Below are positions 63 through 50,462 of a stretch of 64,000 nucleotides of DNA, piece by piece (the stretch's first letter is position 1; every line of letters starts with the position of its first letter). The notes under the pieces were generated by a model. The model saw only the letters and a program-made list of their open reading frames with translations, had not been told where the DNA came from and did not search any database. The stretch spans positions 220,873 to 284,872 of the forward strand of contig CASEGV010000001.1 in NCBI GenBank assembly GCA_949287595.1. Reading direction: 5' to 3'. The position numbers and the translations under genes are program-made. Origin of the DNA: an uncultured Mycoplasmatota bacterium. Its GTDB lineage: Bacteria > Bacillota_I > Bacilli_A > RF39 > UBA660.

Positions 63-1148
63 ATGAAATTAGTTAATAAAGGAAGTTATGAAATTAACTT
101 ATTTAAAGATGGAATTAAAATTGATAAAAATCTATTAAAATTTAGAAATTTAGAAAAATCGTTAGATACTGTTAAGATAAATTCTAATGATAAAATAGAC
201 GAGAAAGGAGTTTCTCTGGAGTTTAAGGTTATTACAGATCCTGACGAAATTACTCCAGATGAATATGTATTTTTGAAAGAAGATGAAAAGAATAACGTAT
301 TATCTAGTTTATCTAGATTAAAAAATGTAAAAGATTTTCTTAGACAAAATGATTCTTCTTTATTTAATCTAAAAATTTCTAAATATTTGCTCAATCTTGT
401 TAAGTCTAATAGATTTGCAGCATTAAGTGATAGTAATAACAATATTATATTTAGAAATAGTATTCAAATTGTTGGGGAAGGTGATGAAAACAAGAAAAAG
501 AAATCAATTTTTAAGAAATTAAAGAATTTCTTTAGAGAGAAGATCAATGAAATTAATAAAGATAGATCTAATGAAGAATTTAGCTTAGACGTATTAGATC
601 TATTTGATCAAGTTAAGTTTATATCCAACAATAATGAAAAGGAATTTATTGACAGAACTTCATCTTATATGGCTTTAATTAAGAAAGCTGATATACTTCA
701 TCAAGAAGCACAGAAAGAAAAATTACTAATTGAACTAGTAAATCATATATATGAATCTGTAATCAGCGTTTCTGGATTTAATCATTATATAACATTTGAT
801 GATCTAGTTAAGTTACAGAAAAAGTGTTCTAAACAATTAGATTTAGATTATATAAAAAATTTTACTAGAGTTATCCCGGATGAAGTAGTTTCTAGAAAAA
901 TACTTGCAGATAGTTTGCAAGTATTTGATAATTATGTAGTTCTTCACTATGATCCTGAAGGAAAAGCTTTTAGTTGGACAGAAGAAGAGAAAGAACGTGC
1001 TAAGGATCCTGTTTTATTTGGAGTAATTAGTGGATCTAATAAATTATATTATATTGGATCTTGGGTAGATGATTACTGTGATTTAACATGGGATAAAATT
1101 GTAGAAAAAATAGGAGAAGATAAAACGTTATTTGAAGAAAATAAATAA
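63..1148 (+). CDS. hypothetical phage protein
   Basis: 361 aa ORF between promoter motif and terminator; C-terminal KDPVLFGVI...LYYIGSWVDDYCDLT looks conserved but function not recognised. Confidence 0.8.
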   Translation: MKLVNKGSYEINLFKDGIKIDKNLLKFRNLEKSLDTVKINSNDKIDEKGVSLEFKVITDPDEITPDEYVFLKEDEKNNVLSSLSRLKNVKDFLRQNDSSLFNLKISKYLLNLVKSNRFAALSDSNNNIIFRNSIQIVGEGDENKKKKSIFKKLKNFFREKINEINKDRSNEEFSLDVLDLFDQVKFISNNNEKEFIDRTSSYMALIKKADILHQEAQKEKLLIELVNHIYESVISVSGFNHYITFDDLVKLQKKCSKQLDLDYIKNFTRVIPDEVVSRKILADSLQVFDNYVVLHYDPEGKAFSWTEEEKERAKDPVLFGVISGSNKLYYIGSWVDDYCDLTWDKIVEKIGEDKTLFEENK

Positions 1149-9189: not shown

Positions 9190-9862
9190 AAAAGGAAATA
9201 TATTCACTACAGATAAAAAAGTGATAGTTAATACCATAAATTGTGTTGGGGTTATGGGAGCTGGAATAGCATTAGAGTGTAGGTTAAGATTTCCAGATAT
9301 GTTCAATACATATAAAAATTTATGTTCTGATGGTCTTATTTCTCCTGGATTATTATGGTTATATAAAGCTAATAACAGTAGATGGATATTAAATTTTCCA
9401 ACAAAAACACATTGGAAATATCCATCTAAAGAGATATATATTGAAAAAGGATTAGAGAAATTTGTAAACACTTATAAAAGTAAAAGTATAGATTCTATAG
9501 CATTTCCTCTTTTAGGAACTAATAATGGAGGATTAAATAAAGATAGAGTATTAGAAATTATGTGTAAATATTTAAAAGATTGCGATATACCAATATCAAT
9601 ATATGATTATGATCCTTTAGCAAATGATGGTATAATAGATAACTTTATTAAAAAATGGAAATTACTATCAGATGTAGATAAGATATCAATATTTGGGAAA
9701 TTGCAGTTTGAAAAATTAACTAAAGTTATTAATTATAATAATCTCAGTTCATTGATATCAATTCACAATATTGATAAATCTATATCTATTAATACTTTAG
9801 AAAAATGTTATAGCTTATATAAAATTGGAGATAAATTTAAATTATTAAAACAAAATAATTAA
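9176..9862 (+). CDS. macro domain protein (DarG-like ADP-ribosylglycohydrolase)
   Basis: KGNIF...IVNTINCVGVMGAGIALE..RFPDMF, ILNFPTKTHW, SIAFPLLGTNNGGL. Confidence 0.88.
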   Translation: MIDFKKGNIFTTDKKVIVNTINCVGVMGAGIALECRLRFPDMFNTYKNLCSDGLISPGLLWLYKANNSRWILNFPTKTHWKYPSKEIYIEKGLEKFVNTYKSKSIDSIAFPLLGTNNGGLNKDRVLEIMCKYLKDCDIPISIYDYDPLANDGIIDNFIKKWKLLSDVDKISIFGKLQFEKLTKVINYNNLSSLISIHNIDKSISINTLEKCYSLYKIGDKFKLLKQNN

Positions 9863-10440
9863 TGATCTTAAATGATTTTAAAGAAAAAGCAAATAAATTT
9901 CTTAAAGATAATTATGGAATTGAAAATTATATAGATGATAATGACTTTAAAATAAGTGTTTTAAAGTTTTATACTTATATCAGTGATAATTATTGTTCAG
10001 ATTTTATTGATAAGGTCGATCAAATTTCTAATATTATTTTATCAGATATAGTATTAACTGATTATAGGAAATTGATAGAAATAATTATATTTAATTTCTT
10101 ATTTGAAAGAATTCCTTGGTCTTATAGTGGATCTAATCTCTCTTTTATGTTCATAAAGGATATTTCTGAGTCCTTTACTAAAAGAGAGGAGGAGATAAAA
10201 AATTTATTTCTTGAAAATACTGAAGAATATTTAAAACTATTTGGATCTAGTAAACCAATAGAAACTAAGAAAAAAGAGCTCGATTATTGTCTACAGGATA
10301 TTAAATCAAATAAATTTTTGATATCAATATGTTTTGAATTTATAATCGATAAATGTCTTAAAAATATACTATATCAGAGTTCTTATGATAAAAGTACTAG
10401 AGTAAACTTTGAAGAATTTTTAAATATTATTACAACATGA
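9862..10440 (+). CDS. hypothetical protein
   Basis: 192 aa ORF coupled to neighbours. Confidence 0.7.
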   Translation: MILNDFKEKANKFLKDNYGIENYIDDNDFKISVLKFYTYISDNYCSDFIDKVDQISNIILSDIVLTDYRKLIEIIIFNFLFERIPWSYSGSNLSFMFIKDISESFTKREEEIKNLFLENTEEYLKLFGSSKPIETKKKELDYCLQDIKSNKFLISICFEFIIDKCLKNILYQSSYDKSTRVNFEEFLNIITT

Positions 10441-37246: not shown

Positions 37247-40200
37247 ATGAATAGAAGATTGGTATTAATTGATCAAAATGAAACCCCAGACTATACTAAA
37301 TATTATAGTGGGGAAGTTGGAAATGAAGTGTATACATTACAATATCTTGAATCTTTACTTAAAAGTGATTCTAGTAGGATATTAGGTGTTGGGGAAGGTG
37401 ATGCAGTATTATTAGTTGGAGCAGAACCATTTAAATTTTTGCAAGGATATTATCATTTTGGAGTACGTTCTGAAAATTATTTTGACTGTTCTAAATTAAG
37501 AAGATTATCTATTGAAGGCGGAGCTTTTGTAAAGTGTGTTACTGAATACCCTAGTCAAGAAGAGATTAATGATTTTATGTCAATAGACTTTACTACACCT
37601 AGAGACTTTTCTTGGTTTAAACAAAAAGTATTACATACTTTTGAAGAAGCTTGGAAATTTTTAGATTGGATAGAATCATTACCAAAAGAAGAACCACTTG
37701 GATTTGACTATGAAGCATCTGGTATGCCACTAGATAAAGTATTTTATTTATCTGGAGCATCTATATGTAATATAAATTACGGTGGTTTTATATCATTTAC
37801 AGATATTAGAAGAACCTCATCTGAATATGCTTATAGAGGATTACTAGAAAGGCTTGGAAAAATCCTTCTAGAAAGAATGGATTACATATGGGTTTATAAT
37901 ATGCAATATGAATTCCAAGTATCTCATAGAGAGTTAGGAGTAGATTTATATAATCTTTGCGATGCTAGTGTAGTAAATGTTCTTGACGGAAATCATTTAA
38001 AGAAATATTCATTAAAATGGACTGGTCAAAAAGTTCTTGATGGAGTAAGAACTTGGGACGTAGATTTTGATAGATTATCTGATTTAATGGATTCAATGTT
38101 TTATGAAACGGTTGGAAAATTAAAGAAAGATAAGAAAAAAGTATTTAAGGTAACCTTAGATAATTACCAAGATACTAATGAATGGAAAATTATTTGCTCA
38201 ATTTATCCAGATTACGTAGGAGAATTTGAAAGATTAATTAATGATTATTGGGGATTTCCATTTATGTGTGTACCCTCAGATATATTAGGATATTACTGTA
38301 ATTTGGATGCTTTCTACACTTTAATGATTTTTAAAGAAAGAGAGAATACATATAGTAAAGATGCATTTAGAACATTCTTAGATAATATAAGATTAGGAGC
38401 TAGACTACACTCGAGTGGCCTTTATATAGATGAACCTTATAGATTAAAATATCAAGAAGAATGTCATAAAATGATGGCTTGGGGTATAACTTACTGTGCT
38501 ACTGCAAGATGTAAGATTAAAATGGATAAACACTCCAAATTAATGGCATCAACAAAAAAGATGAGTCCTTTTATAAAACTTTTAATTGAAAAAGAGTGCT
38601 TCTTTAATGGTAATTCTCAAGAAATAGTAAAAAATATTTTACTAAATCACGTAGATATATTAGATGCTTATAGTACTGGAGTAAACGAAGGACTTTTATT
38701 AATGAATTTTGGAGAACAATTTGCTGAAGGTTTTCTAAATATACTAACTGATTCAATGAAAGAGATTAAGTTTAAAGGAAAAATTGATTCGGGAGTAAAG
38801 AATAAAAGAAAATTATTAGGAGTAGTAGCAGCAAAGTTAGAATCATTTATTGGATTAGACAAAATAAAGCTAAATAATAAACATATTGAATTAGAAAAAT
38901 TCTATTATTATAAGAATGCTTATGATGAACTGATTAATATTAGTAATACTCAATTAAATGATATTAATAATATACCACAAAATATAAAAGCATTCGGAAA
39001 GGTTTTTAATTTACTTGATTATTCTAAATTCGTTAGTGATAATTATTTTAAATGTAAAAGTCCACAAGAAAATGATAAAATAGTTACTGAAATGTTTGAG
39101 CTTTACAAATCTCAGACAGCATTTATAGCAGCATTAGGAGAAAGTATTCAGCAACTACCAATTGAAAAGAAAGAAGATTTTTATACTAATTTAGGAATAT
39201 TCGAAATACAAGATGCTTTTAGTCACTTTATGTCAGAATGGAAAAATTGGTATGAACATTCTTCAACAGAAGAAGCTGAATATATAAGCAACTTATATCC
39301 AAGTAAAATGTTCCATCTAGCTATGGATTTTTGGAAGAAAGGAATAGAAGTAGAAACAGCTAAAGATGTATATCCAGTTAAGGACGTGTGGGCAGATTTT
39401 TTTGGATTTAATACACAAGCGCAGTTCTTTGATTATTTTAAAGATCAATATGAATCGTATTGTAAGCCATTCTCAGACTCTGATTTAACTGGAGATGATT
39501 TCTTCTTAATGAGAAAATTTTCATTAAATTATTTATTATATAAAAAATATGCAAAAGTATTAAGTACTTATATAGATGGTATGTTTAAAGCTAATAATAA
39601 ATGGGTAATAGAAGGAGAAGATCATATACCTTTAAGAGAAGCTGATCCATCTGAACCTGGAGCTATAGAAAAATGTTTTGCTCACTTTGAAGTAAATACT
39701 AAAAGTAGTAAAAGATGGTCTTCCGGATTCCATACTATTATCTCACATTCTGATCTTAAGGATTGTTTATCAACTCCATATCATTATGATAGATTTGGAA
39801 ATAAAGTAATAGAAGACTTCTTCGAAACATATTTTGACATTAGCAGTGCAGAGGTAAATTATAATTTTGCCGTTTAAGGTAGTAATATCTTAAATAATAA
39901 GTGGGCAAATTAACGGTAAAAGGTGAGATTCCTAATACCGTGCTAACTATAAGAATTACGAATAGGTCTTGTAGTAGTGTAACGCATAGAAGGTGAATAA
40001 ATATAATCCTTCCACGAGTGTCCACCAACCTATACAAGGTTGAAAATATATGCTGGACTAAGAAGAATATGAATTCTTAGAATTATAGGATAAAAAGCCT
40101 ATAAGATAACAAACGAAAAGCTGCAGGATTTGCTAGTGGAGACCCTGATTTAATAAATAAATTTCAAATTGGGGAAGATATATATATATACTCAGCTAAA

Positions 40201-42408
40201 TTATATTTAGGAGAAGAATTTGATAGACTTGAAGATCATGTAAAGAAAATGTGGAGAAAGCGATTTAAAACAATTTTCTTAGGAGTACTTTATGGTCTTG
40301 GAAAGAAGAGTTTAGCAGAAAGATTAAACTGTTCTGAAGCAGAAGCAGAAGAAATTATACAAGGACTTTACAAGAGTTTCCCAAAATTGAGAGAATATGT
40401 AGCAATTCAACAAAAATATCCACTTGAACATAGTGGATATATTAATACAATGCTGGGAGATAAGTTAAAAGTATCCGAATATGATTTACTATTAAAATCT
40501 ACTTCAGAACGTGAGAAAAAAGGATTAATAGCCAGAATTCAAAGGTTGGGCGTAAATCTACCTATCCAAGGTGGGACAAGTTCAATCATGGCTAGTGGAT
40601 TTATGAATAATATTAGAGAATCTATAAAAAATGGTTGGAAGAATATACTACAACCAATTATTGTAGTGCATTAACTTTATATAGTGCACTTAAAACCTAC
40701 TTAATTGCTGGAAACACTTGTTAGGTTATCAATACGTCGGAACTTGTCAATCCTATCGTAAAAATTTGATAAATAGAGTCAATCAGCAGTAAATTGCAAA
40801 TCAGGAATAAATAATTAATTTAAAATAATTAAAAATGGAAAGTTATGAGTTTAAATTATTAATAAATGGAATAGAAAATTTACCTAAAGAGCTTTTAAAT
40901 TATAATTCCGTATTATATAGAATTTATGATAAAGCAACTAATAAGAACTACATAGGAACAGCAAAATATGGAATTCCTGGAAGATTATATGATAGATCTT
41001 ATGGACATGTAGTTTATTTACGTAATTTGAATAAAACAAAGTGTCGCGGAATGTATTTTGAAATGTCTAAAAGAATAGAAGATTTTTCTCTTATTATAGA
41101 GAAAGTTACTGAATCAAAAAATTATGAAGAAATTTTATTGGATGAAACTGAATTGATAATAAAGTATGATTCAGTACTGTCAGGGTATAATGTTAGTATT
41201 GATGGAAAACCAAGATGGAAACAAGGAACAATCTGTGTAAATGATGGAAAATATGACTTATATATTTATCCTCAAGATATAGATAGATATATAAATAATG
41301 GATTTTCATTAGGATCTTGTAAACATGATTTTTTAAAAGGATTTATATGGATTAATAATGGATCTATATCTAAAATGATAGATCCGGATGATTTTGAATT
41401 ATTTAAATTAGACGGATTTGTGAAAGGATCTTTAGTATCTCCAAATAAGGGAAAGATTTGGGTAAATGATGGAAAGAATTCAAAATTAATTAATAAAGAT
41501 AAGATTAATACTAAAGAATTTGAAAATTATAAATTTTATGGAAGACTAGAAGGTCCTCGAAAACCCAGAGGAAAGTATAATTCTTCAAAGAAGAGAAAAA
41601 TAGTAAACAATGGGGAGAAAGAGCTTAGAGTATTAGAGTCTGAATTAGAATCTTTTTTAAAAGATAATCCATCCTATATATTAGGGCGATTGAAAGGAAA
41701 AATTTTAGTAAGTAATAAAGAAACTAATATATCTAAGTTTATTAGTAAAGATAAATTAAATGAATATTTATCTAAAGGATTTACAATCGGGAGAACAAAG
41801 AAATGACAGACTTTGTTTAGTAAATGCAATTTATTCAACGACTATCGAAAACATATCTTATTTGAAAGAAAAAGTGAGTAGAGTAGAACATAAGCTATTG
41901 ATGTTCGAAACAGTAGGCACCTTATGAATGGGTGAAGATATAGTCTGGTCTACCTAGAGATAGATAGCAGAAATATTTAAAAATATTTCGGCATAAATGT
42001 AGCGAATTTATGTGAACATTAACGGATTCTAATACTAATTATGTTCCAGTTAGTAAAATATTTGATATTAGAAAATTTTATGATATAAACTATACTGATT
42101 ATTGTTCATCCTTTGGACCAAAAATTAAATTATTATTTGATTTGTTATCTGGAGTTTCTTACGAAAAAGCATGTCCTATGAAACAAATTGATGAAAATAC
42201 TATTGAATATAAAGGAAGTGCTTATTCATTATTAGCTATTTATGATAGAATAATGAATTGTAAAGATTTAAAAGTGGAGTGTAATGTTTCTAGAGATTCA
42301 TTAATTCCAAAATGGATAACAAATCCTATAGATAGATTTATAAGAGAGAATGGTACTAGTATAGTTAAAGATATAAGTAAGTATACAATTCAATTTAAAA
42401 AATTATAA
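37247..42408 (+). CDS. polA: DNA polymerase family A, spliced (exons 37247-39855, 40116-40671, 42025-42408; 1182 aa)
   Basis: 3'-5' exo GFDYEASG, YNMQYE, YCNLDA; joined motif A YFDISSAEV|KAAGFASGD, motif B RKRFKTIFLGVLYG, NLPIQG, joined motif C IVVH|DS. Confidence 0.9.
39856..40115 (+). mobile_element. group I intron (260 nt, ORF-less) in polA motif A
   Basis: P1 ggt|aaa...tttgcc with U.G; core aacggtaaaa...aataccgtg, gtgtaacgcata, gaaaatatatgct; ends aaacG; splicing restores frame. Confidence 0.85.
40672..42024 (+). mobile_element. group I intron (1353 nt) in polA motif C with homing endonuclease
   Basis: P1 gtgcat|...gtgcac with U.G; aattgctggaaa, aatcagcag, ttcaacgactat, gaagatatagtct; ends aacG before GAT TCT. 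Confidence 0.88.
40835..41806 (+). CDS. intron-encoded GIY-YIG-like homing endonuclease with C-terminal repeats
   Basis: VLYRIYDKATNKNYIGTA...E...GYN; about five repeats beginning CVNDG/WINNG/WVNDG/IVNNG/LVSN and ending GF..G. Confidence 0.8.
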   Translation: MESYEFKLLINGIENLPKELLNYNSVLYRIYDKATNKNYIGTAKYGIPGRLYDRSYGHVVYLRNLNKTKCRGMYFEMSKRIEDFSLIIEKVTESKNYEEILLDETELIIKYDSVLSGYNVSIDGKPRWKQGTICVNDGKYDLYIYPQDIDRYINNGFSLGSCKHDFLKGFIWINNGSISKMIDPDDFELFKLDGFVKGSLVSPNKGKIWVNDGKNSKLINKDKINTKEFENYKFYGRLEGPRKPRGKYNSSKKRKIVNNGEKELRVLESELESFLKDNPSYILGRLKGKILVSNKETNISKFISKDKLNEYLSKGFTIGRTKK

Positions 42409-42413
42409 AAATA

Positions 42414-42443
42414 AATAAGAGGGAAATATTTCCCTCTTATTTT
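42414..42443. terminator. bidirectional terminator shared by polA and cassette A
   Basis: aaataagagggaaa/tttccctcttattt. Confidence 0.8.
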
Positions 42444-42751
42444 TATCCTTTAAATTCTGTAGGTCTTCCATTATATGTACTAGGAGATATTATTACATCA
42501 AAAAAAGTTAAACTACCATAATCATTTCCGACTATTATATCTGAAGAATTCATTTCTCCCTCATTTATTATTGTTGAAAAACGTTCTTCGTAGTAAGAAG
42601 ATTGTCTATTATATCTATATTTTCCATTTATAGAAAAATTCGTAGGAGCTATTTCATTACAATGTATATATACATGATTTATTCCATTTACTGTTTTACC
42701 TGATGAGTAAAACTCTATTGAAGATAATCCCTCTTGTTTTAAAGGAACATT
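42443..42751 (-). other. silent C-terminal cassette A (102 aa, no start codon)
   Basis: open frame from site S1: NVPLKQEGLSSIEFYSSGKTVNGINHVYIHC...PSTYNGRPTEFKG*. Confidence 0.85.
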
Positions 42752-42753
42752 TA
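42739..42753 (-). repeat. putative recombination site S1
   Basis: minus strand taaatgttcctttaa. Confidence 0.85.
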
Positions 42754-42781
42754 GTTTATATTAGAATTTTAATATAAATAT

Positions 42782-42796
42782 AAAACGTTCCTTTAA
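42782..42796 (+). repeat. putative recombination site S2
   Basis: aaaacgttcctttaa. Confidence 0.85.
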
Positions 42797-43164
42797 CTCA
42801 GGAAGGTAGAGAACTCTACAGAGTTGTAACTTATCAACTTACCTCAATCTCACCATCTACTGCAGAAATTGAATGCTGTGGAAATAGTCTGCATGTAGGA
42901 GATGATCCATTAATGACATTAGTAGATGATGGAGGATTAATTGATATAACTGTATTTGGTCAAAAAAATGGATGGAGTTTTTCTATTAAATTCACTGGAA
43001 TAGATAAAATTTACAAAGATACAGGAGATAACTGGACTGGATATTTTAATTTTAGTAACGGAGTATTCTCAGTTAGTGAAGGAAATAATGGACATTTAAC
43101 AGGTAATGTAACTGATGAAAGTAGTGGTAAAGTATTTAATATAACAATTGAAGTAATTGGATAA
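42784..43164 (+). other. silent C-terminal cassette B (126 aa, no start codon)
   Basis: NVPLTQEGRELYRVVTYQLTS...; in frame with and extends track ORF 42913..43164. Confidence 0.85.
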
Positions 43165-43176
43165 ATTATTAAATAA

Positions 43177-43204
43177 AAAGAGGTGCTTTAAAGCACCTCT
43201 TTTT
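43177..43204. terminator. bidirectional terminator after cassette B
   Basis: aaagaggtgct/agcacctcttt. Confidence 0.8.
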
Positions 43205-43208
43205 ATTT

Positions 43209-44102
43209 TTAGTAATATAAACTTAATAATTGTCCTAAATCTAGATAATCTATTCCTAAGTTTTTTGAAGTTAATAAATCTCTATCACTTTGTCCATATA
43301 ATCCAGAATTTAATCCTATATGAATTATATCATCTCTATCATAAGTTAAACCTTTTAATACTGAACTTATAACAGTATCTTTAGTTTGTCCTAATTGACT
43401 TTGTATAATTATTTGACAATTAGTATATGGAACTCTTAAATATTCTGATAAAGCACATATTATGTAATCTAATAATACCCTCCAAGAATCTGAACCATTA
43501 CTAGAAGATAGTAAGCTACCGGGAATAATAGCATAAATTTTTTCAGGATTAAAACATGCTAATTTATCCCATACTTCAAATCTTAATCTTACGTCATAAA
43601 TTCCTCTAGGTAATAATCCTGGTTTTCCATTACTCTGAAAAGTTTCTATTAGACAATCTAAAACATCACAAAATATGACTTTTTTTTGTCTATTAATTTC
43701 TCTCTTTTCATTACTTCCCCAAGAATTATTTTGTGGGGATGAATATCCTCCCCAAGAAGAACCAGAACTAGTTCCCCAAGATGGAGAGGGATTTCTTTGC
43801 CAAGGAAATTGTTGCTGTGATGTTGTATTTCCCCAACTACTTCCTGGTGTTGTAGTATTTCCCCAAGAAGATTGTCCATTATTAGAAGTTCCCCAATTAT
43901 TTACTGGTTGCCCAAAAGGAGTTTGTTGCATAATTTTTTTATTAAATTTATCCTGTTCATTAAATACTTCATTTACTTTTTCTTCTTCATCCCCCTCATC
44001 AAAATCGGCTGGTTCTTCATCATCTTCTTCATCTATTGGAGGATCATCATAATTAATTTCAGAATCAATATAGTCTCTTTTTAAAATTTCTTCATCTCTC
44101 AT
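43209..44102 (-). CDS. protein with acidic N-terminus, WG-repeat low-complexity region and degenerate HAD (PNK 3'-phosphatase-like) domain
   Basis: NNWG, SSWG x3, PSWG, NSWG; VIFCDVLDCLI and IG...SDRD..TSKNLGIDY. Confidence 0.65.
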   Translation of the reverse strand: MRDEEILKRDYIDSEINYDDPPIDEEDDEEPADFDEGDEEEKVNEVFNEQDKFNKKIMQQTPFGQPVNNWGTSNNGQSSWGNTTTPGSSWGNTTSQQQFPWQRNPSPSWGTSSGSSWGGYSSPQNNSWGSNEKREINRQKKVIFCDVLDCLIETFQSNGKPGLLPRGIYDVRLRFEVWDKLACFNPEKIYAIIPGSLLSSSNGSDSWRVLLDYIICALSEYLRVPYTNCQIIIQSQLGQTKDTVISSVLKGLTYDRDDIIHIGLNSGLYGQSDRDLLTSKNLGIDYLDLGQLLSLYY

Positions 44103-44560
44103 TTTGACTTATTAATAAATAATTCTCTAAAAATACAAAGTTTATTATTTAATGAGCAATTCGAGTGATCTTTATTATAAAGTTCACACATACTAGGACA
44201 AGCTTTATCGATTAATTCTGATAATCTATATAATGGATTATTATTTTCTATACTCTCGAATATATTTTTATCAGCAAATAATCTCTCTAATTCTCCTTCA
44301 ATAGGGACCATATTACATAAATCTGTACTATTTCCACTATTATCTACACTCAAGTCAGAACAATAATCAGTGAAACAATAATCTTTATTATCTATGTATC
44401 TAGGATCTGGGATATATCTGCAAATTTTACTATAATAGCAATCATCACATACTATCTTTCCACCTCCTTCGACGATTATAGGTTTAAATATTAAAGTCTC
44501 ATCTCTTAAGCTTCCATCTTTTTCTTTTAATGTAACTTTTATAGTCTTAAATTTACTCAT
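44099..44560 (-). CDS. Cys-rich hypothetical protein
   Basis: CDDCYYSKIC, CFTDYC, CPSMC...CSLNNKLC. Confidence 0.72.
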   Translation of the reverse strand: MSKFKTIKVTLKEKDGSLRDETLIFKPIIVEGGGKIVCDDCYYSKICRYIPDPRYIDNKDYCFTDYCSDLSVDNSGNSTDLCNMVPIEGELERLFADKNIFESIENNNPLYRLSELIDKACPSMCELYNKDHSNCSLNNKLCIFRELFINKSK

Positions 44561-44642
44561 AATTAGTTAATTTTATAAATTAATGAAGCATTATTTGCTT
44601 CATTAATAAGGAATTAAGTCCATTTAAGACGTTAGTAATAAA

Positions 44643-44978
44643 TTATTTAGGTAACATTACTTTTATATTATACGTATACGTATCATCTCCAGACGTAGAA
44701 GTACTTGAGCTAGGATATTTCATTTCTCTTCCCATAGATCCAAAAGCATAATCATACTCTATATTAACTGTTCCTGAAGTTTTTCCGGGAGGGATTGTTA
44801 TAGAATAGTCTCCATTACCTGTCATCTGAAAAAATCCATCTGGTGTTGTATTACCAGTAGTAAATCTACCTTCTACATAAATAGTAGCTAAATTTGCTGG
44901 ATCACTTGTATAACGAGATTCATTTATAGTTACTGTACATGTAGGTTTCGGTTTTCCATACTGAGTTAAAGGAACGTT
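44643..44978 (-). other. silent C-terminal cassette C (111 aa, no start codon)
   Basis: NVPLTQYGKPKPTCTVTINESRY...; in frame with and extends track ORF 44643..44825. Confidence 0.85.
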
Positions 44979-44980
44979 TA
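44966..44980 (-). repeat. putative recombination site S3
   Basis: minus strand taaacgttcctttaa. Confidence 0.85.
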
Positions 44981-45017
44981 ATTTTGCTCTTATATTAACT
45001 TTAAACTCTAATAATTG

Positions 45018-45066
45018 AGAACAATAATAACTTAGAAAAATTATGTAAATTAGTTATTATTGTTCT
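45018..45066. repeat. 15-bp perfect inverted repeat upstream of adhesin gene
   Basis: agaacaataataact / agttattattgttct followed by T-run. Confidence 0.7.
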
Positions 45067-45102
45067 TTTTATTTCATATTATAACTTATAATAATTAAAA
45101 TT

Positions 45103-46875
45103 ATGGCAGAATTAAAAATAGCAACTAAAGCATTTTGTAATACTCTTCTTGCAGGATCTTTCTCAGGAGATACTACACAATGCCCTACGAAAAGTGAAAT
45201 ATTAAGTGCTGGACTTAGTATAAAATCTGGAACATATGAAGATAATCAATTAGTTCCAGAAGATCATATTCAATATCTATGGTGGGAATATACATTTTCT
45301 GTATCTCCTACTGCAGCATCTCAAATTCCAGCTACTGGGGGGAATAGGCAATTTACTGTAACTTCTTATAAGGTTCAATATTCAAAATCTACTGCTGGAG
45401 ATAAAGTAGAAGTTACAAGACAAAATGTAGGATATACATCCTCTAATTCAGGTAGTGGTTCTTGGAACTCTGGGAATAATACAATAACTTATAGTGAAAA
45501 TAAAAGTACTAAAGGGTTATCTGGTATAGTAACTTGGACTCAAAATGAATCTAGTAAAAAAGTAACAGCTACTCACTCTCAAGCACCTGGAACTATAACT
45601 TATAGTGGAATAACTATAAAGTCTGCTACTGCTAATGTTGCTCCTGCAAAAGGTGGAACAATAAATTCTGGATCTGTTACTTATGAACAAACTTGGGGAT
45701 GGAATGGAGCAACTACTGGAGGAGGAACTATTACTTCAGGATTATCAGTATCATGGACATCAGTATCTATTCCATCATTAGGTACCACTACAACTAATTC
45801 TACTACAGATACTGGAAAAGATATAACAGTAACTGTTAGCGGTAATGGAAAAACTGCATCAAAAGCAGTAAATGTTAATCAAGAAGCTAATACCTATACG
45901 GATAGTTGGGGAAGTTGGAGCTATACAATTAGTAATATTACTGTAGGTGGAGGAAGTGGAGATATTCCTTATAGTGGTGGTACTAGAACAGTTAGTGCTT
46001 CATGTACTGGAAGTAGAGGTGGAACTAGAACTTGGAAATCTGGAAGTACACAATCTATTAGTGATAGTAGTAGTCCATCCGTTAGCTGGAGTATTTCAGG
46101 TTCAGGATTTTCTTTGAATGGAACAACAGTTACTGCTAGTGCAAATAATGGGGGAAGAAGATGTTGTACTGTAACTGCTTCATATCCAGGGGCTACTTCA
46201 AAAACTGCACAGATATGTCAAGCCGAAGGAGCTATTTCGTACGGAAATTATAGATTTTCTACTAGTCCAACTTCTATTAACTTTTCTAGTAGCGGTGGAA
46301 GTAATAGCTTTACAGTAACTTCAGTTGCAACTAAATATATAGGATCAACTTCACAGGGTGATGTTTCTATATCTTGGAGTGGATCTAAGGGAGGTACGAA
46401 TTCATCATCATTTAGTGTATCTCCATTAAGTGGTGGAAATGGAACAAGAGTTAATGTTAGTATTGGCTCAAATTCTGATACTAGCAGTAAAAGTGCAACA
46501 GTTAACTTAGTTCAAGAAGGTTCTGGCACTAGCATAAACGTTCCTTTAAAACAAGATGCTCCAGTATATAATGTTTATTTTAATTTAACTTGGGGAGGTA
46601 GTATGTCTAATACATATGGCGCTCAATTTGATATTAATAGTTCTAATTTTTACGATGGAAATAGAAAACACATATCAGATTCAGGACCTACTCCAGGAGC
46701 GACAGAAAAGATTACTATTAGAGTAATTAATACAAATTTATTCTCATGGAGTACATCTGGAGCTTGGTATTCATATCATAGAGATCCTAGTAATAAAGTA
46801 GATACTTATATATCTCCTAATAGTGGAACTTGTTCTTCTGGGGATAATATAGATATTTATTTTAATGCAATTTAA
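45103..46875 (+). CDS. BACON/Ig-repeat adhesin or tail-fibre-like protein with exchangeable C-terminus
   Basis: S/T/G-rich beta repeats (FSVSPT..IPATGGNRQFTVTS; FSTSPTSINFSSSGGSNSFTVTS...SPLSG...N...SATV...INVPLKQ) ending in Q as in BACON domains; site S4 at codon 479. Confidence 0.8.
   Translation: MAELKIATKAFCNTLLAGSFSGDTTQCPTKSEILSAGLSIKSGTYEDNQLVPEDHIQYLWWEYTFSVSPTAASQIPATGGNRQFTVTSYKVQYSKSTAGDKVEVTRQNVGYTSSNSGSGSWNSGNNTITYSENKSTKGLSGIVTWTQNESSKKVTATHSQAPGTITYSGITIKSATANVAPAKGGTINSGSVTYEQTWGWNGATTGGGTITSGLSVSWTSVSIPSLGTTTTNSTTDTGKDITVTVSGNGKTASKAVNVNQEANTYTDSWGSWSYTISNITVGGGSGDIPYSGGTRTVSASCTGSRGGTRTWKSGSTQSISDSSSPSVSWSISGSGFSLNGTTVTASANNGGRRCCTVTASYPGATSKTAQICQAEGAISYGNYRFSTSPTSINFSSSGGSNSFTVTSVATKYIGSTSQGDVSISWSGSKGGTNSSSFSVSPLSGGNGTRVNVSIGSNSDTSSKSATVNLVQEGSGTSINVPLKQDAPVYNVYFNLTWGGSMSNTYGAQFDINSSNFYDGNRKHISDSGPTPGATEKITIRVINTNLFSWSTSGAWYSYHRDPSNKVDTYISPNSGTCSSGDNIDIYFNAI
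46535..46549 (+). repeat. putative recombination site S4 (inside expressed gene)
   Basis: taaacgttcctttaa. Confidence 0.85.
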
Positions 46876-46880
46876 TAAAA

Positions 46881-46915
46881 AAAATAGACTATCATTGGAC
46901 ATGATAGTCTATTTT
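46881..46915 (+). terminator. intrinsic terminator after adhesin gene
   Basis: aaatagactatcat/atgatagtctattt. Confidence 0.8.
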
Positions 46916-46981
46916 GCTTTTCTTACACCTTTAATATCTTATTATTGAAATTAATAATAATAATTAAGTATTTAATCAATT

Positions 46982-48022
46982 ATGTTAGAGACAAATAAAT
47001 TATTGTATTCTTTATCTGATGTATCAATAATTCCAGCTGAAACAGTTACTATTGAGAGTAGATCTGAGTGCATTCCTTTTACAAATAATATTGAAAGAAC
47101 AGATTCTAATTACTATCCTATAGTAGTAGCTCCAATGGCATCAGTTATTTCAGAGAATAATTATAAGATCTTTAATAATAATAAAGTATCATGTATTATT
47201 CCTAGAAATATAGAATTAGAAGTTAGATTAAAATTATGTAGTGATGTATTTTGTGCTTTTTCTCTTAAAGAAATAGAAAATAATTTTATTACAAATAAAT
47301 TTAATGTAATTAATAAAATCTATGTACTAATCGACATTGCTAATGGACATTTACAAAAACAGCTAACTATAGGAAGTAAATTAAAACAGATATATGGAAG
47401 TAATGTAGTATTGATGGGAGGAAATATTGCTAATCCTGACACTTATTTATACTATAATTACTCTGGATTTGATTATGTTAGAGTTGGTATTGGAGGAGGA
47501 TCAGGATGTTTAACATCTACTCAAACTAGTATTCATTACCCAATGGCATCTTTATTAGATGATATTACAAAAATAAGATATAATATAGATATTAACACTA
47601 GCACTAAAGTAATTGCTGATGGAGGTATTGGAAATTATTCTGATGCTATAAAATGTTTGGCTTTAGGTGCAGATTATGTTATGATGGGGAAAGTATTTGC
47701 AAAAACTGTAGAAGCATGTGGAGATACCTATGTAGGATTAGATGGTAAAGTATATAGACACTATTATGGTATGTCAACTAAGGAAGCTCAAGCAAAAATT
47801 TTAGGAAAATCATTAGAAAACATCAAAGAAAAATTAAAAACTTCTGAAGGAAAGACAGAAGAATTAGAAGTAGAATATACTATATCTGGATGGATTGATA
47901 ATTTTAATTCATACCTTAGATCAGCTATGTCTTATACTAATTCAAGAAGTCTTAGTGAATTTAAAAACTCTAGATGTAATATTATCTCTTTATCATCTAG
48001 TAATTTTATTAATAATAAATAA
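46982..48022 (+). CDS. GMP reductase / IMP dehydrogenase family (no CBS domains)
   Basis: IDIANGH, GGNIA, VRVGIGGGSGCLT, IADGGI...KCLALGADYVMMG, YYGMST, LRSAMSY. Confidence 0.88.
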   Translation: MLETNKLLYSLSDVSIIPAETVTIESRSECIPFTNNIERTDSNYYPIVVAPMASVISENNYKIFNNNKVSCIIPRNIELEVRLKLCSDVFCAFSLKEIENNFITNKFNVINKIYVLIDIANGHLQKQLTIGSKLKQIYGSNVVLMGGNIANPDTYLYYNYSGFDYVRVGIGGGSGCLTSTQTSIHYPMASLLDDITKIRYNIDINTSTKVIADGGIGNYSDAIKCLALGADYVMMGKVFAKTVEACGDTYVGLDGKVYRHYYGMSTKEAQAKILGKSLENIKEKLKTSEGKTEELEVEYTISGWIDNFNSYLRSAMSYTNSRSLSEFKNSRCNIISLSSSNFINNK

Positions 48023-48031
48023 ATTTAACTT

Positions 48032-48847
48032 ATGGCTAGAAAGAAAGCTATTAAATCAGATCTTGAAGAAGAGTTGCAAGAAATTAGAAATGAAAAGAAT
48101 AATATCTTAAATTTCAAGATGAATTTTAAATGCAGAACTAAACATCAAAAAGAATTTCTAAAGTCAATATATGAAAAAGAAATTACTTTAGTTTATGGAG
48201 CTGCCGGAACTGGAAAATCTTACGTATCTCTTTATGCAGCATTAGATTTACTTAAACACAGTTCAGAAAATGGATATGAGAAAATAGTACTAATTTATCC
48301 AGTAGCAACAAACCCTGATGAAAATATTGGATTTTTAAAAGGAACATTAGATGAAAAACTTTCCGTTTATAAAGAAGCGGACTTTTATACTATGGAAAAA
48401 ATAATAAATGCTTCTGGAAAAAATGGAAAAGAAGTAGTCCAGAAATTAGTTGAAGCTGGAAAAATAGAAGTAAAGTCTGCAACTTTTCTAAGAGGATCTA
48501 CTATAGATAATTCAATAGTAGTAATATCTGAAGCTCAAAATTTCTCAAAAGACACATTTCTTAAAATATTAACAAGAATAGGAACTAATTCCAAATATAT
48601 TTTTAATTCAGATCACCAACAATTAGATAATGGAAGTATCAAATCTAAAAAAAATGTTAGTGGATTACAATACGCTAAAGAAAAATTATTTGATTTAGAT
48701 GAAATAGGAATAATTGAGTTTGGATTAGAAGATATTGTAAGAAATGATATTATTGTAAAAGTACTAAAACGATGGATACCTGAAGTATATGGTAATATAG
48801 ATGAAAAAGATCTGGATAAAAAAATATCAGAAGAAAAATTAGAATAA
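48032..48847 (+). CDS. phoH: PhoH family ATPase
   Basis: GAAGTGKS, IGFLKG, FLRGSTI, ISEAQN, LTRIG, DIVRN. Confidence 0.9.
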   Translation: MARKKAIKSDLEEELQEIRNEKNNILNFKMNFKCRTKHQKEFLKSIYEKEITLVYGAAGTGKSYVSLYAALDLLKHSSENGYEKIVLIYPVATNPDENIGFLKGTLDEKLSVYKEADFYTMEKIINASGKNGKEVVQKLVEAGKIEVKSATFLRGSTIDNSIVVISEAQNFSKDTFLKILTRIGTNSKYIFNSDHQQLDNGSIKSKKNVSGLQYAKEKLFDLDEIGIIEFGLEDIVRNDIIVKVLKRWIPEVYGNIDEKDLDKKISEEKLE

Positions 48848-48878
48848 AAAATAGAGGCTTAACGCCTCTATTTTTTTA
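48848..48878. terminator. bidirectional terminator between phoH and cassette D
   Basis: aaaatagaggc/gcctctatttt. Confidence 0.8.
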
Positions 48879-48940
48879 GTAAAATAATTATTTCCCCAAT
48901 ATTTAAATAAATATGTATATAGTATACAATATACAATAGA

Positions 48941-49243
48941 TTAAACATAATATACTGTTACATAAGAATGAGTCTCTTCATTTTCTCTTATTACAACAGA
49001 GCTTATTCCAGAAAAATTTCCAAAACTTAATGATTTATCTACTGTCCATGTTCCTGTTGATAGAGTATATTCGATTATTTTAAGAGTATTTCCCATATAA
49101 CTAATATGCTGATTTACTCCTCCAGATTCTTTCACAAGAGTTATATCTGCAGATATACTTTGTCCTGGTGGGACACCAGATGGACTCCAATGTACTACTA
49201 AGGTTCCAGTAATAGTTTTTCCATACTGATTTAAAGGAACATT
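48941..49243 (-). other. silent C-terminal cassette D (100 aa, no ATG at head)
   Basis: NVPLNQYGKTITGTLVVHWSPSGVPPGQ...; in frame with and extends track ORF 48941..49135. Confidence 0.85.
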
Positions 49244-49245
49244 TA
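49231..49245 (-). repeat. putative recombination site S5
   Basis: minus strand taaatgttcctttaa. Confidence 0.85.
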
Positions 49246-49310
49246 AAATCGTCTAAAATTCTTATAATTGTAATATACTTAAATAAATTAACATAGAAAA
49301 AATTAAAAAA

Positions 49311-50462
49311 ATGAGTGAATTAATTTCTTCAAAGTGGGTAGACGAATTAGGAATATACTATCCTATAGATGGTAATACTCAACTTCATCAAACTCCTGGA
49401 AATGGTATATTTGAATTATATCAATCTCAGGGTCAAGATAAACGTATAGGATTAAAGAAAATTGCAAATAAATTTGAGTTTAATTTTAAGCTCTATGATT
49501 TAGATTGTAGTGATTTTTTAAACTTAGTAAAAAATACGTGGGAATCTGATATATTTGTAGAAAATAATAGGAATCTAGGGATTATTTTAAATGGAATAAA
49601 AGGAACCGGAAAAACCTTAAGTTCTAAAATACTTTGTAATAAAATTGGATTACCAGTAATAATGGTTACAAAAATTATTGATGGTATGATAAGTTTTATA
49701 CAATCACTAGAATTTGAATGTATTATATTAATTGATGAAGCAGAAAAAACATTTAAAAAAGGAGAAGATGATGAGCTTCTAGTAAAATTAATTGATGGAG
49801 TATATAATAGATCTAGAAAGCTATACATACTCACTACAAATAAATTGGATATCAATGAAAATCTTTTAGGAAGACCTGGAAGAATAAGATACATTAAAGA
49901 ATATGGAAATTTGTCCAATAAAGCAGTTAAAGAATTTTTAGATGATAACCTTAAAGTACCTAACAAAAGAGATGCTATCTTAGAGATAGTAGATCTTCTT
50001 GAAATATCTACTATAGATATTCTTAGAAATATAGTAGAAGAAGTAAATATTCATGGAGATATTTCAGAAGATAGTTATCTTAATGTTCCAAAATCTAAAT
50101 ATATATTTGATATACTTAGATTTGAAATAACTAATTCTTCTCAAGTAGAGGAAATAAAAAATACTCTAAAAGGTGTAAAAGATATTAAAGAATGGTTATC
50201 TTTACCATCTGGAAAAGGAGAAGATAGAACTAATGAAGATGAATTATATGATAAATACAGATTCTTCGAAGATACTTTAAAGAGTAAATATTCTACTTTA
50301 TGGAAAAACTCTGAAACATCTTTGGGAATTTTACTAGATGAAATCGATGAAGAAGGATTTGTAAGTGTAAAGGGTATAGGATATTACAGTGATACTGAAT
50401 ATCTAATAAAAATAATAGGACAAAGAAATAATCCATCTTTATATAGAGGAGATTTGATTTGA
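49311..50462 (+). CDS. AAA family ATPase
   Basis: GIKGTGKT, ILIDEAEK, ILTTN, RPGRIRY. Confidence 0.88.
   Translation: MSELISSKWVDELGIYYPIDGNTQLHQTPGNGIFELYQSQGQDKRIGLKKIANKFEFNFKLYDLDCSDFLNLVKNTWESDIFVENNRNLGIILNGIKGTGKTLSSKILCNKIGLPVIMVTKIIDGMISFIQSLEFECIILIDEAEKTFKKGEDDELLVKLIDGVYNRSRKLYILTTNKLDINENLLGRPGRIRYIKEYGNLSNKAVKEFLDDNLKVPNKRDAILEIVDLLEISTIDILRNIVEEVNIHGDISEDSYLNVPKSKYIFDILRFEITNSSQVEEIKNTLKGVKDIKEWLSLPSGKGEDRTNEDELYDKYRFFEDTLKSKYSTLWKNSETSLGILLDEIDEEGFVSVKGIGYYSDTEYLIKIIGQRNNPSLYRGDLI

Follow-up and report, generated by a model that had tools for sequence, protein, structure and literature searches.

The question raised by this locus is whether one surface-type protein is supplied, by DNA inversion, with several alternative C-terminal ends. 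In the window, i.e. the whole 64,000-nt stretch of DNA that was analysed, the 14-mer AAAYGTTCCTTTAA is found at 42739(-), 42783(+), 44966(-), 46536(+) and 49231(-). The copies strictly alternate in orientation and span 6.8 kb. All five had been listed in the initial annotation and all were recovered; 0.24 matches are expected, and five were reached in none of 100 shuffles. There is no sixth copy in the whole assembly (2,107,787 bases), where the reversed control pattern has no match, and no further copy was found on contig C1, which carries the window, with up to one mismatch allowed. The copy at 46536 is the start of codon 479 (NVPLKQ) of the 590-aa gene 45103..46875. Translation of the frame bears out the earlier statement that a C-terminal rest of 112 aa follows it. 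The features of the locus are as follows.

42413-42442, no strand: palindromic, terminator-like hairpin of 13 pairs, detected on both strands; common to the last DNA-polymerase piece (+) and cassette A (-)
42443-42752, minus strand: silent cassette A; site 42739-42752, 102-aa frame, stop codon
42753-42782, no strand: AT-rich spacer of 30 nt separating sites A and B, which stand head to head; 'left flank' of either site, non-expressing
42783-43164, plus strand: silent cassette B; site 42783-42796, 126-aa frame, stop codon
43171-43208, no strand: terminator-like hairpin of 17 pairs after cassette B
43209-44560, minus strand: two passenger genes (297 aa and 153 aa) within the invertible segment from site B to site C
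44643-44979, minus strand: silent cassette C; site 44966-44979, 111-aa frame, stop codon
44980-46535, plus strand: constant segment, invertible; upstream region and codons 1-478, start at 45103; between site C (-) and site E (+)
46536-46875, plus strand: cassette E, currently expressed; site 46536-46549, 112 aa, stop codon
46881-46915, no strand: terminator-like hairpin after cassette E, from the hairpin search
46982-48022, plus strand: passenger gene, IMP dehydrogenase/GMP reductase-like (PF00478, 2.3e-37), in the segment between sites E and D
48032-48847, plus strand: passenger gene, PhoH-like ATPase (PF02562, 2.6e-46), in the segment between sites E and D
48846-48876, no strand: terminator-like hairpin separating the PhoH-like gene from the end of cassette D
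48941-49244, minus strand: silent cassette D; site 49231-49244, 100-aa frame, stop codon

The four start-less frames of 102, 126, 111 and 100 aa described at the outset are confirmed by translation. Cassettes A-D are in the same phase as E, have no start codon at the head of the frame, and have upstream stop codons 0-25 codons away. The five cassettes are mutually dissimilar after the first 8-10 residues, in agreement with the divergence after a few residues noted before. The ORF list contains internal fragments only (42913..43164, 44643..44825 and 48941..49135) and nothing for cassette A, so it does, as pointed out earlier, miss or fragment all four. A diversity-generating retroelement was considered and rejected, as the cassettes are dissimilar beyond these 8-10 residues and long direct repeats were not found. 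The 297-aa and 153-aa passenger genes have no Pfam or PHROG match.

A computed search for terminator-like hairpins gives 10 sites, compared with 2.0 expected. The claim that a hairpin follows each cassette holds by this search for A, B, D and E, each of which has one; the hairpin after cassette C (about 44581-44609) was spotted by eye only. Neutral decay of the cassettes, which the initial annotation had named as a sign against its own reading, is contradicted in part. Silent cassette pairs with 85-87% nucleotide identity show a pN/pS of 0.18-0.23, but cassette C in the sequencing run X3 has 4 synonymous and 13 non-synonymous changes, close to the neutral expectation. Other close cassette pairs display 0-1 synonymous vs 8-10 non-synonymous differences.

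A silent cassette of this locus has an expressed counterpart in a homologue. In protein P0004, which is 92% identical to the target in the constant part, a homologue of cassette D is fused at residues 479-578 (76% identity over 100 aa, E 1.3e-48). Fused homologues of cassettes A, B and C were not found, in searches that are weak as evidence. The motif NVPLxQ is located 91-225 aa before the C-terminal end in 98 of the 120 best homologues, and the tails behind it in the best homologues form 25 unrelated families. Among homologue pairs whose constant parts are at least 85% identical, 632 have unrelated tails and 415 related ones.

The sites are conserved at the DNA level. Their consensus, wTAAAYG-TT-CCTTTAA, is a dyad, though an imperfect one, in which a central TT separates the arms TAAACG and TAAAGG; a serine invertase is expected to use a site of this form, short and dyadic with an asymmetric dinucleotide at its centre. 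The dyad is kept across 128 distinct site contexts, and conservation ends sharply at position -1/-2. Six-frame translation shows the codons GTT-CCT-TTA in all 51 NVPLxQ peptides, the background shares being 0.39, 0.41 and 0.52, and the Asn codon AAC in 46 of them (background share 0.12). The invariance of the Val, Pro and Leu codons therefore points to a constraint on DNA. The shared core is only ~15 bp, and its synonymous positions are kept even though the phages' target proteins are 45-48% identical.

Comparison with relatives reveals that segment order and orientation differ by site-bounded inversions; a single fixed arrangement, which had been named as a contrary outcome, is not what is found. 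In seven IMG/VR loci of related jumbo phages (L026-L032) the core occurs 3-9 times each, and it is exactly there that reassorted flanks and cassettes meet. When these are taken together with a segment of the window and locus L017 (nine loci), there are 51 sites, of which 46 open complete frames of 93-225 aa. Eight of 19 cassette families are found with left flanks of two or more classes, and 11 of 18 flank classes have more than one cassette family. L029 and L026 are ~99.5% identical, and the comparison yields nine matching blocks at 98.3-99.7% identity, five of them inverted; block boundaries are mostly at sites, and the remainder at a 49-bp repeat. L017 has the same A/B spacer between head-to-head site pairs, and a C-like cassette cut by the contig end. 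Other contigs also end near sites: G002 begins with the A/B spacer, 48 nt before a site, G001 ends 67 nt past a site, and in the 34 site-bearing IMG/VR contigs 22 of 68 termini are within 130 nt of one. In relatives the sites are spread over more than 20 kb, with up to 12 in one contig, and a DNA polymerase gene rides in the inverted segments.

A candidate for the enzyme is encoded 179 kb from the sites (G000:C1:83761-84360). This ORF of 199 aa begins MIYGYIRVST, in keeping with a small serine recombinase of about 180-200 aa that has its catalytic Ser near residue 9-10 and a C-terminal HTH, and is the sole PF00239 match on C1 (1.2e-24). Its best NCBIfam model is the Mpi family NF009949 (1.5e-58, 197.9 bits, positions 1-197 of 203), which outscores other families by more than 50 orders of magnitude. 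Strict membership of the equivalog was rejected, since the curated cut-off, 272 bits, is not reached. Among the PHROGs, phrog_125, 'DNA invertase', scores best (9.2e-35), and the PDB matches are resolvases and Gin (Gin chains 1e-9). Tyrosine recombinases (PF00589) have seven matches in the assembly and none on C1. The invertase is found at 80-99% identity in 43 IMG/VR jumbo-phage contigs. Of the site-bearing contigs, all 12 that reach 350 kb encode it, and so do 18 of the 34 overall, most of the remainder being fragments. No site lies within 3 kb of the invertase gene in any of the 43 loci. This small serine invertase, Mpi-like and the phage's only detected recombinase, is the likely catalyst and would act in trans; the link to the sites is one of co-occurrence.

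The locus is very likely a multiple-inversion system, or shufflon, of a jumbo phage of roughly 370 kb from the gut, probably operated in trans by the Mpi-like invertase. The central claim made at the start, that alternative C-terminal cassettes are attached to a single constant N-terminal part by site-specific inversion, is supported by the D fusion, the reassortment, the inversions, the breaking and branching of contigs at sites, the constraint on the core and the co-occurrence of the invertase. In such a system each site would separate a 'flank' side from a 'cassette' side. Recombination of two oppositely oriented sites, with the crossover probably at the central TT, would invert the DNA between them and exchange what lies on the cassette sides. 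One flank would be the end of the constant part (gene 45103..46535), the other flanks being non-coding, and the cassette placed behind the constant part would be translated in frame (NVPL-x-Q...) and end at its own stop codon and terminator. One inversion would reach A, C or D, two would reach B, and inversions alone could produce 64 arrangements. Passenger genes would be carried along: at this locus those for the PhoH-like and IMPDH-like proteins, in relatives that for the DNA polymerase. Switching may take place within a population during replication.

Alternative junctions, which the initial annotation had proposed to look for, were sought in Logan contigs and are found in part: X3, X5 and X6 branch or break at sites, but X1, the likely source run, has the reference arrangement only. 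In X3 and X6 the contigs break exactly at sites. In X6 the constant segment is a separate 1585-nt contig covering 44967-46548, cassette B a separate 414-nt contig covering 42787-43200, and the body of cassette C is joined to the A/B spacer. In X3 the body of cassette E stands behind the A/B spacer, and cassette E is therefore silent there; a loose end behind 46550 reads N-Q-Y-G-K-E, which is the D-type junction of P0004. In X3 and X5 the constant end is continued in at least two different ways. All new junctions consist of a flank end and a cassette end, as the inversion model requires. The evidence consists of contigs, and branching at sites could thus stem from co-existing strains instead of switching within a lineage.

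This raises the question of whether exchange took place over evolutionary time only, by homologous or microhomology recombination between co-infecting relatives at a conserved box, with no programmed switching. The one fixed arrangement in X1 fits this, as does the fact that the rearrangement evidence all comes from comparison between contigs, samples or strains. Such exchange is nevertheless quite improbable, given a ~15-bp core whose synonymous positions are kept at 45-48% target identity: a protein-recognised site fits this better than homology-driven exchange. Also at odds with it are the several site-bounded inversions between L026 and L029 at ~99.5% identity, the branching within the single runs X3, X5 and X6, the 22 of 68 contig termini at sites, and a conserved invertase that co-occurs with the sites. 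It is scarcely credible that NVPLxQ is a mere structural linker of a multi-domain family and the start-less frames are decaying remnants of paralogues. The motif is indeed at a domain boundary, and expressed homologues of cassettes A, B and C were not found. However, frames stay open for 100-126 codons at 27% GC (random stop codons are estimated at ~8%), each is then followed by a terminator, and a relative expresses the D homologue in fused form. The linker reading is further opposed by synonymous positions invariant in 51 of 51 peptides, purifying selection on silent cassettes (pN/pS 0.18-0.23) and strictly alternating sites, and it is contradicted by flank and cassette reassortment in the nine loci and by the L026/L029 inversions.

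There is a small chance that the shufflon is real but is served by another recombinase, from the host or an undetected phage enzyme, the Mpi-like invertase being employed otherwise. One candidate is a transposase-like ORF at 63..1148 of the window (phrog_10081, 6.8e-18). The distance of 179 kb and the absence of the invertase next to sites in all 43 loci are compatible with another enzyme, as is a link between invertase and sites that consists of co-occurrence. On the other hand, C1 has one serine recombinase and no tyrosine recombinase, it offers the invertase no alternative site to serve (up to one mismatch), and none of the 12 large site-bearing contigs lacks the invertase. The form of the sites, a dyad with an asymmetric central dinucleotide, is as expected for serine invertases. 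Mpi itself works in trans on dispersed sites, according to the available part of its description (bioRxiv 10.1101/2022.10.31.514637).

A multiple-inversion system driven by the Mpi-like invertase would have counterparts, and the relationship to Gin, Cin, Min and Rci that was first suggested holds for the serine invertases Gin, Cin and Min, but not for Rci. The Min system of p15B has six crossover sites. It resembles the jumbo phage locus in having several short sites in both orientations, a constant N-terminal part, start-less C-terminal cassettes, many isomers and a serine-family invertase. The available text of one report describes Min of this plasmid-prophage as a serine-invertase multiple-inversion system (PMC6109161). 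In contrast to Min, where the invertase is beside the sites, here it is 179 kb away, the sites are spread over 6.8 kb (>20 kb in relatives), and inverted segments carry unrelated genes (PhoH-like and IMPDH-like, and DNA polymerase in relatives). The target also has no detectable kinship to Mu/P1-type tail fibres, and the carrier is a jumbo phage of ~370-400 kb that looks lytic. The Gin (Mu) and Cin (P1) systems have two sites, two alternatives, an adjacent invertase, and a requirement for an enhancer and Fis. They share with this locus a small serine invertase (~190-200 aa) whose catalytic domain is N-terminal and whose HTH is C-terminal, and an in-frame C-terminal swap at a short site. They differ from the five sites and five alternatives found here (up to 12 sites in one relative contig), and, in contrast to the Gin/Cin/Min type in general, in which the invertase gene adjoins the invertible segment and contains the recombinational enhancer, the gene here lies apart from that segment. 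The system would be an enlarged, more dispersed version of the host-range switching known from phages Mu, P1 and p15B.

In Bacteroides fragilis, Mpi is the master DNA invertase, and its 10-nt inverted-repeat consensus presumably resembles the core at 9 of 10 positions. No family scores better than Mpi for the phage invertase, and as far as the accessible part of the source describes, Mpi works in trans on numerous dispersed sites (bioRxiv 10.1101/2022.10.31.514637). However, Mpi flips capsule-locus promoters, whereas coding sequence would be spliced here, and the gene is phage-encoded and reaches 197.9 of the 272 bits of the equivalog. Short repeats also serve to exchange the C-terminus of a surface-recognition protein among several cassettes in the R64/IncI Rci system and in Rin, a shufflon of Bifidobacterium prophages that has 11-bp sites and five variants of the RBP (available part of PMC6109161). 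Theirs are tyrosine recombinases beside the cassettes, and none was found on C1; an R64-type (Rci) shufflon was rejected, as there is no PF00589 match on this contig. BV01-like Phocaeicola phages have a tail-fibre shufflon whose configurations vary between samples and, as would be so in the present case, a gut phage performs multi-cassette inversion, which there alters the distal part of a tail protein that binds carbohydrate (preprint PMC13596623, in the part available). Unlike the locus described here, theirs, according to the same part of that source, is 1.7 kb with three cassettes, 10-bp motifs and an adjoining recombinase, in a temperate phage of ordinary size (PMC13596623).

With respect to the target protein, the N-terminal part is kept in more than 4360 homologues, and the protein has no match of its own in Pfam, PHROG, NCBIfam or PDB. 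A Mu S/P1 S tail-fibre homologue was rejected, as no match in these four collections was found. The BACON label first given to the gene is not borne out by the protein itself, which matches no BACON or other Pfam family at E up to 0.01, but among 30 aligned relatives 18 match PF13004 (best 3.7e-11) and 17 match fn3_6. The N-terminal part shows similarity to a crAss-like BACON protein. Judging from its relatives, the constant part is probably repeat-rich and of the Ig-like/BACON family. The target may have a tail-fibre, receptor-binding or host-range role, in which the variable tip would bind host receptors, and one surface-type protein could join any of five unrelated end pieces. Tail-fibre-like PHROG matches are found 5-10 kb away in L029.

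The AAAYGTTCCTTTAA 14-mer (the core) occurs five times in the window against 0.24 copies expected, and five or more copies were reached in 0 of 100 shuffles. There are no copies outside these five in the 2.1-Mb assembly, and none with up to one mismatch elsewhere on C1, the 371-kb contig that holds the window. Each copy opens one of five alternative C-terminal pieces, cassettes A to E.

42739, minus strand: site of cassette A; 14-mer copy with a silent frame of 102 aa
42783, plus strand: site of cassette B; 14-mer copy with a silent frame of 126 aa
44966, minus strand: site of cassette C; 14-mer copy with a silent frame of 111 aa
46536, plus strand: site of cassette E; 14-mer copy at codon 479 (N-V-P-L-K-Q) of the 590-aa gene 45103..46875
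49231, minus strand: site of cassette D; 14-mer copy with a silent frame of 100 aa

Frames A–D are in the same phase as the expressed copy at 46536, stop codons lie 0–25 codons upstream of them, and none of the four has a start codon at its head. Sequence search and frame translation confirm in this respect what the initial annotation described, i.e. five copies, a common phase and start-less cassettes. Similarity among the five C-terminal pieces is confined to the first 8–10 residues. A DGR was considered and ruled out because the cassettes are not alike. Terminator-like hairpins are found 3′ of A, B, E and D (10 found vs. 2.0 expected), and that 3′ of C was recognized by eye only. The silent cassettes are all missed or truncated by gene callers, as had been claimed: the ORF list contains internal fragments of B, C and D only. 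The passengers among the cassettes are two minus-strand genes of unknown function (43209–44560), an IMPDH/GMP-reductase-like gene and a PhoH-like gene. Pfam, searched at E up to 1, gave no informative match for any of the five cassettes, for the two passenger proteins or for the N-terminal 99 aa. With respect to RNA-level explanations, Rfam has no match in the window or in 39700–42200.

In the proposed mechanism, inversion between two oppositely oriented sites would flip the intervening DNA. The constant segment, which carries the promoter and codons 1–478 (the constant part), is itself bounded by sites C(−) and E(+), and flipping it would join the constant part to C. An E–D inversion would place D behind the constant part and an A–E inversion would join it to A; B would require two steps. 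By computation, 64 arrangements can be reached by inversions alone. Every cassette would supply its own stop codon and terminator, and the passenger genes would keep their own signals and change orientation only. At L029, the locus of a relative, genes for an 848-aa ATPase and the 1179-aa DNA polymerase are among the passengers.

Homologues of the target protein number more than 4360 in the protein collection, and one of these, P0004, carries a constant part 92% identical to that of the window. At its residues 479–578, P0004 is homologous to cassette D, which is silent in the window (76% over 100 aa, E 1.3e-48). This fusion is exactly what the inversion model predicts. Other tips stand behind the NVPLxQ motif in P0005, P0007, P0008, P0009 and P0010, and the tip of P0010 is a 202-aa cassette that is silent in the IMG/VR locus L017. 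Fused forms of A, B and C were not found in searches that are weak evidence on this point. NVPLxQ lies 91–225 residues from the C-terminal end in 98 of the 120 best homologues, and the tails of these 98 fall into 25 unrelated families. Among pairs whose constant parts are 85% or more identical, 632 have unrelated tails vs. 415 with related tails.

An alignment-based scan of IMG/VR yielded seven loci on jumbo-phage contigs of up to 401 kb, in which the target is only 45–48% identical and the core is present in 3–9 copies per locus. Together with the window and L017 these hold 51 sites. Complete frames of 93–225 aa start from 46; of the other five frames, three run off contig ends and two are disrupted. 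Cassettes and flanks, the two sides of each site, are reassorted: 8 of 19 cassette families are found behind more than one left-flank class, 11 of 18 flank classes have more than one cassette family, and a cassette that one genome expresses can lie silent in a different one. Order and orientation, which the initial annotation proposed to compare, are not fixed among relatives. L029 and L026 align in nine blocks of 98.3–99.7% identity, of which five are inverted, and the block boundaries are mostly at sites, the rest at a 49-bp repeat. More distant relatives of about 33% identity (L016, L022–L025) have no copies of the core and no multi-copy inverted 13-mer, and therefore lack the inversion system. 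Close relatives among cultured/GenBank phages were not found by megablast of 42000–49600, and a protein search there gave two weak partial matches only.

The 49-bp sequence is an inverted repeat without the core, seen at 9834–9882 and 10806–10854 in L026, L027, L029 and L031. It flanks the promoter and first 268 codons of the target gene in these relatives. L026 and L029 differ by an inversion at this repeat that joins the N-terminus to either of two ~370-aa arms, and the 'second' ORF of L029 is 99.5% identical to residues 375–746 of L026. The repeats appear to be a second, nested inversion layer in the relatives. This layer is absent from the window.

Evidence from assemblies comes from Logan contigs, not raw reads. 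The likely source run (X1) shows the region contiguous and in the reference arrangement. In X3 (same study, other sample) and X6 (other study), contigs end exactly at the sites. In X6 the constant segment 44967–46548 is a separate 1585-nt contig, cassette B (42787–43200) is a separate 414-nt contig, and the body of C is joined to the A/B spacer. In X3 the A/B spacer precedes the body of E, and E is therefore silent there; two different continuations follow the constant end, one of which (N-Q-Y-G-K-E) is a D-type junction. A further run, X5, has three 42–50-nt contigs in which the sequence beyond site 46536 differs. Every new junction in X3, X5 and X6 has a flank end on one side and a cassette end on the other, and this is what the inversion model requires. 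Logan index words are 31 letters long, as are the words used in Logan assembly. Since the shared core is shorter than these words, the breaks at the sites argue that alternative junctions are present in the reads. Such junctions may also come from a mixture of strains, a source that has to be kept in mind alongside inversion. Among 34 site-bearing IMG/VR contigs, 22 of 68 termini lie within 130 nt of a site (20 contigs affected), where a rough estimate gives fewer than one by chance; a shufflon would account for the breakage of these phages' assemblies at a single locus. The window stretch is present in runs from nine studies. With the D fusion in P0004, the reassortment, the L029/L026 inversions and the breaks at sites, the initial interpretation of a C-terminus swapped by site-specific inversion is well supported, and the locus is very probably a functional inversion shufflon.

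The site is constrained as DNA. The NVPLxQ peptide was searched in all six frames of nine loci, blind to codons, and in the 51 cases found GTT-CCT-TTA is used in 51 (background shares 0.39, 0.41 and 0.52) and the rare AAC (background share 0.12) in 46. Conservation starts sharply at position −1, with T in 124 of 128 distinct site contexts, and the stretch conserved across these 128 is wTAAACGTTCCTTTAA. This may be read as an imperfect dyad, TAAACG / TT / CCTTTA. Serine-invertase crossover sites have this form, a dyad with an asymmetric dinucleotide at its centre, and crossover probably takes place at the central TT.

Neutral decay of the silent cassettes, which the initial annotation set against its own reading, finds a mixed answer. 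Silent-cassette pairs at 85–87% nucleotide identity have pN/pS values of 0.18–0.23, a purifying signal; because of this the silent cassettes are, to judge by these pairs, not simply decaying. The opposite is seen with the silent C of run X3 (13 non-synonymous vs. 4 synonymous changes) and with one 99-aa cassette family, found at L026 12925(−), L030 12301(+), L031 19399(−) and L032 9995(−), which has 8–10 non-synonymous and 0–1 synonymous differences. Both fit either neutral drift or diversifying selection, and in the 99-aa family diversifying selection on the tip may be involved. At L082 (G002:C1:1-2014, on a related viral contig), at ~93–106, one partner of the head-to-head pair with which the contig begins has the core G changed to A and reads N-I-P-L-R-Q; this may be a locked or decaying site. 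L028 has head-to-head sites at 3961(+) and 4013(−), ~40 nt apart, with frames of just 23 and 27 aa. Its cassettes look deleted or collapsed, and the pair may be a product of recombination between directly oriented sites.

C1 is 370,971 bp in length with 27% GC and one 10-N scaffold gap at 52.5 kb, and belongs to a 2.1-Mb bin with 6.99% contamination. The window has genes typical of large phages (Lon-like protease, ATPases, tRNA nucleotidyltransferase, RNA ligase, DNA polymerase A and PhoH). Viral contigs of IMG/VR are close relatives; completeness is scored at 29% for a contig of 113 kb and at 64% for another of 254 kb, and these figures imply a genome of ~390 kb, and target homologues are found on contigs of 386–417 kb. 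Because of these phage-type genes, viral relatives and contig sizes, C1 is read as a probable jumbo phage binned with a bacterium. In the phage hallmark search, phrog_2 matched the PhoH-like P-loop only and PF04984 (tail sheath) had no match. The nearest relatives of the invertase described below and the BACON signal hint at a host in Bacteroidota. A simple repeat finder detected no CRISPR arrays in the assembly, and there is therefore no spacer link to a host. Distant relatives of the target gene (L024, L025) are found in MAGs labelled Mollicutes; low-GC jumbo phages may be mis-binned by composition, and these labels are therefore not to be read as host.

C1 has one resolvase/invertase domain match and no tyrosine recombinase. 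The invertase is a 199-aa ORF at C1:83761–84360, 179 kb from the shufflon, and starts with MIYGYIRVST. Among NCBIfam models it scores best with the Mpi master DNA invertase family (1.5e-58, full length), at 197.9 bits, which is below the 272-bit Mpi equivalog cut-off. It also matches phrog_125 'DNA invertase' (9.2e-35) and, in PDB, the Tn3 and gamma-delta resolvases and Gin; among annotated phage proteins, the invertase from Bacteroides phage B124-14 is the closest (40.5% identity). The enzyme is 80–99% identical in 43 IMG/VR jumbo-phage contigs, including a 401-kb contig with the L026 shufflon ~217 kb away. Every site-bearing contig of 350 kb or more (12 of 12) encodes it, and none of the 43 loci has a site within 3 kb of it; the link between enzyme and sites is therefore strong co-occurrence, not proof. 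It is likely that this Mpi-like invertase drives the shufflon. Two of the 43 genes (L072 and L073) look frameshifted, one base shorter and with many in-frame stops, and may be pseudogenes or assembly errors.

The target had been labelled a BACON-repeat protein. The window protein itself has no match in Pfam, PHROG, NCBIfam or PDB, but BACON is found in 18 of 30 aligned relatives (fn3_6 in 17 of 30), and the label for the window protein comes from these relatives. Comparison of window 45103–45580 with L137 6001–6462 shows that residues 5–160 resemble the start of a 758-aa protein from the crAss-like phage cr115_1 (35.8% identity, E 4e-6). This protein carries the annotation 'lipocalin-like, BACON binding domain' and is encoded next to the endolysin among large structural-looking genes. 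At L029, tail-fibre PHROG genes are 5–10 kb from the target. PDB sequences gave no match to a profile built from alignment A1, and for the homologue P0099 the ESM Atlas has only sub-threshold look-alikes (0.86–0.87), some with BACON. Because the protein has a strongly conserved N-terminus, Ig-like repeats and a ~100-aa hypervariable tip, we lean towards a receptor-binding virion protein, i.e. an anchored fibre or adhesin.

Inversion switches of phage host range are classical; to our knowledge, they are small compact loci beside the recombinase in temperate phages of ordinary size. Min of p15B follows the same logic as this locus, as do the simpler Gin and Cin systems, whereas Rci of R64 and Rin of Bifidobacterium prophages differ in enzyme class from the invertase found here (PMC6109161). 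Tail-fibre shufflons of gut phages were recently reported for BV01-like phages (PMC13596623), and Mpi-family invertases are enriched near programmed bacterial inversions (PMC9881135). No description of the present system was found in the main texts searched on jumbo-phage inversion; the supplements of PMC9881135 and PMC13596623 might list related loci. The core motif was not found in this context in the literature searched, where the three matches were unrelated. New here are the jumbo-phage setting, an invertase remote from its sites, sites scattered among unrelated and even essential genes, the large tip pool and an undescribed target protein family.

Known inversion logic seems to have been scaled up in an uncultured jumbo-phage clade widespread in animal guts, with cassettes dispersed among genes of replication and metabolism. 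It is possible, and proposed here tentatively, that a clade of ~370–400-kb gut jumbo phages has a shufflon of genome scale, driven from afar by a 'master' serine invertase and, in some members, with a nested second layer. The invertase is 80–99% conserved, against a divergence of its target down to 45% identity; the sites, up to at least 12, are spread over tens of kb, the clade-wide library has at least 25 unrelated tips, and inverted segments carry essential genes such as DNA polymerase. If true, this switch could exceed in size every combinatorial surface-protein switch described so far in viruses and could be the phage equivalent of Bacteroides Mpi, perhaps evolved in response to phase variation of host surfaces. 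How huge phages cope with such variable surfaces could be approached directly through the invertase and its 15-bp site, and the cassettes are compact ~100-aa binding-domain candidates, each with an exact boundary.

Two minor observations concern other parts of the window. The DNA polymerase A gene (37247–42408) is in three pieces (~37247–39856, 40117–40671 and 42016–42405), vs. one unbroken ORF of 1179 aa in L029. Within the larger of the gaps (~1.3 kb) is an ORF at 40835–41806 (323 aa, weak PHROG matches only), and Rfam detects no intron there (39700–42200). At 63–1148, a 361-aa ORF matches the transposase PHROG phrog_10081 (6.8e-18), which suggests a mobile element inside the jumbo phage.
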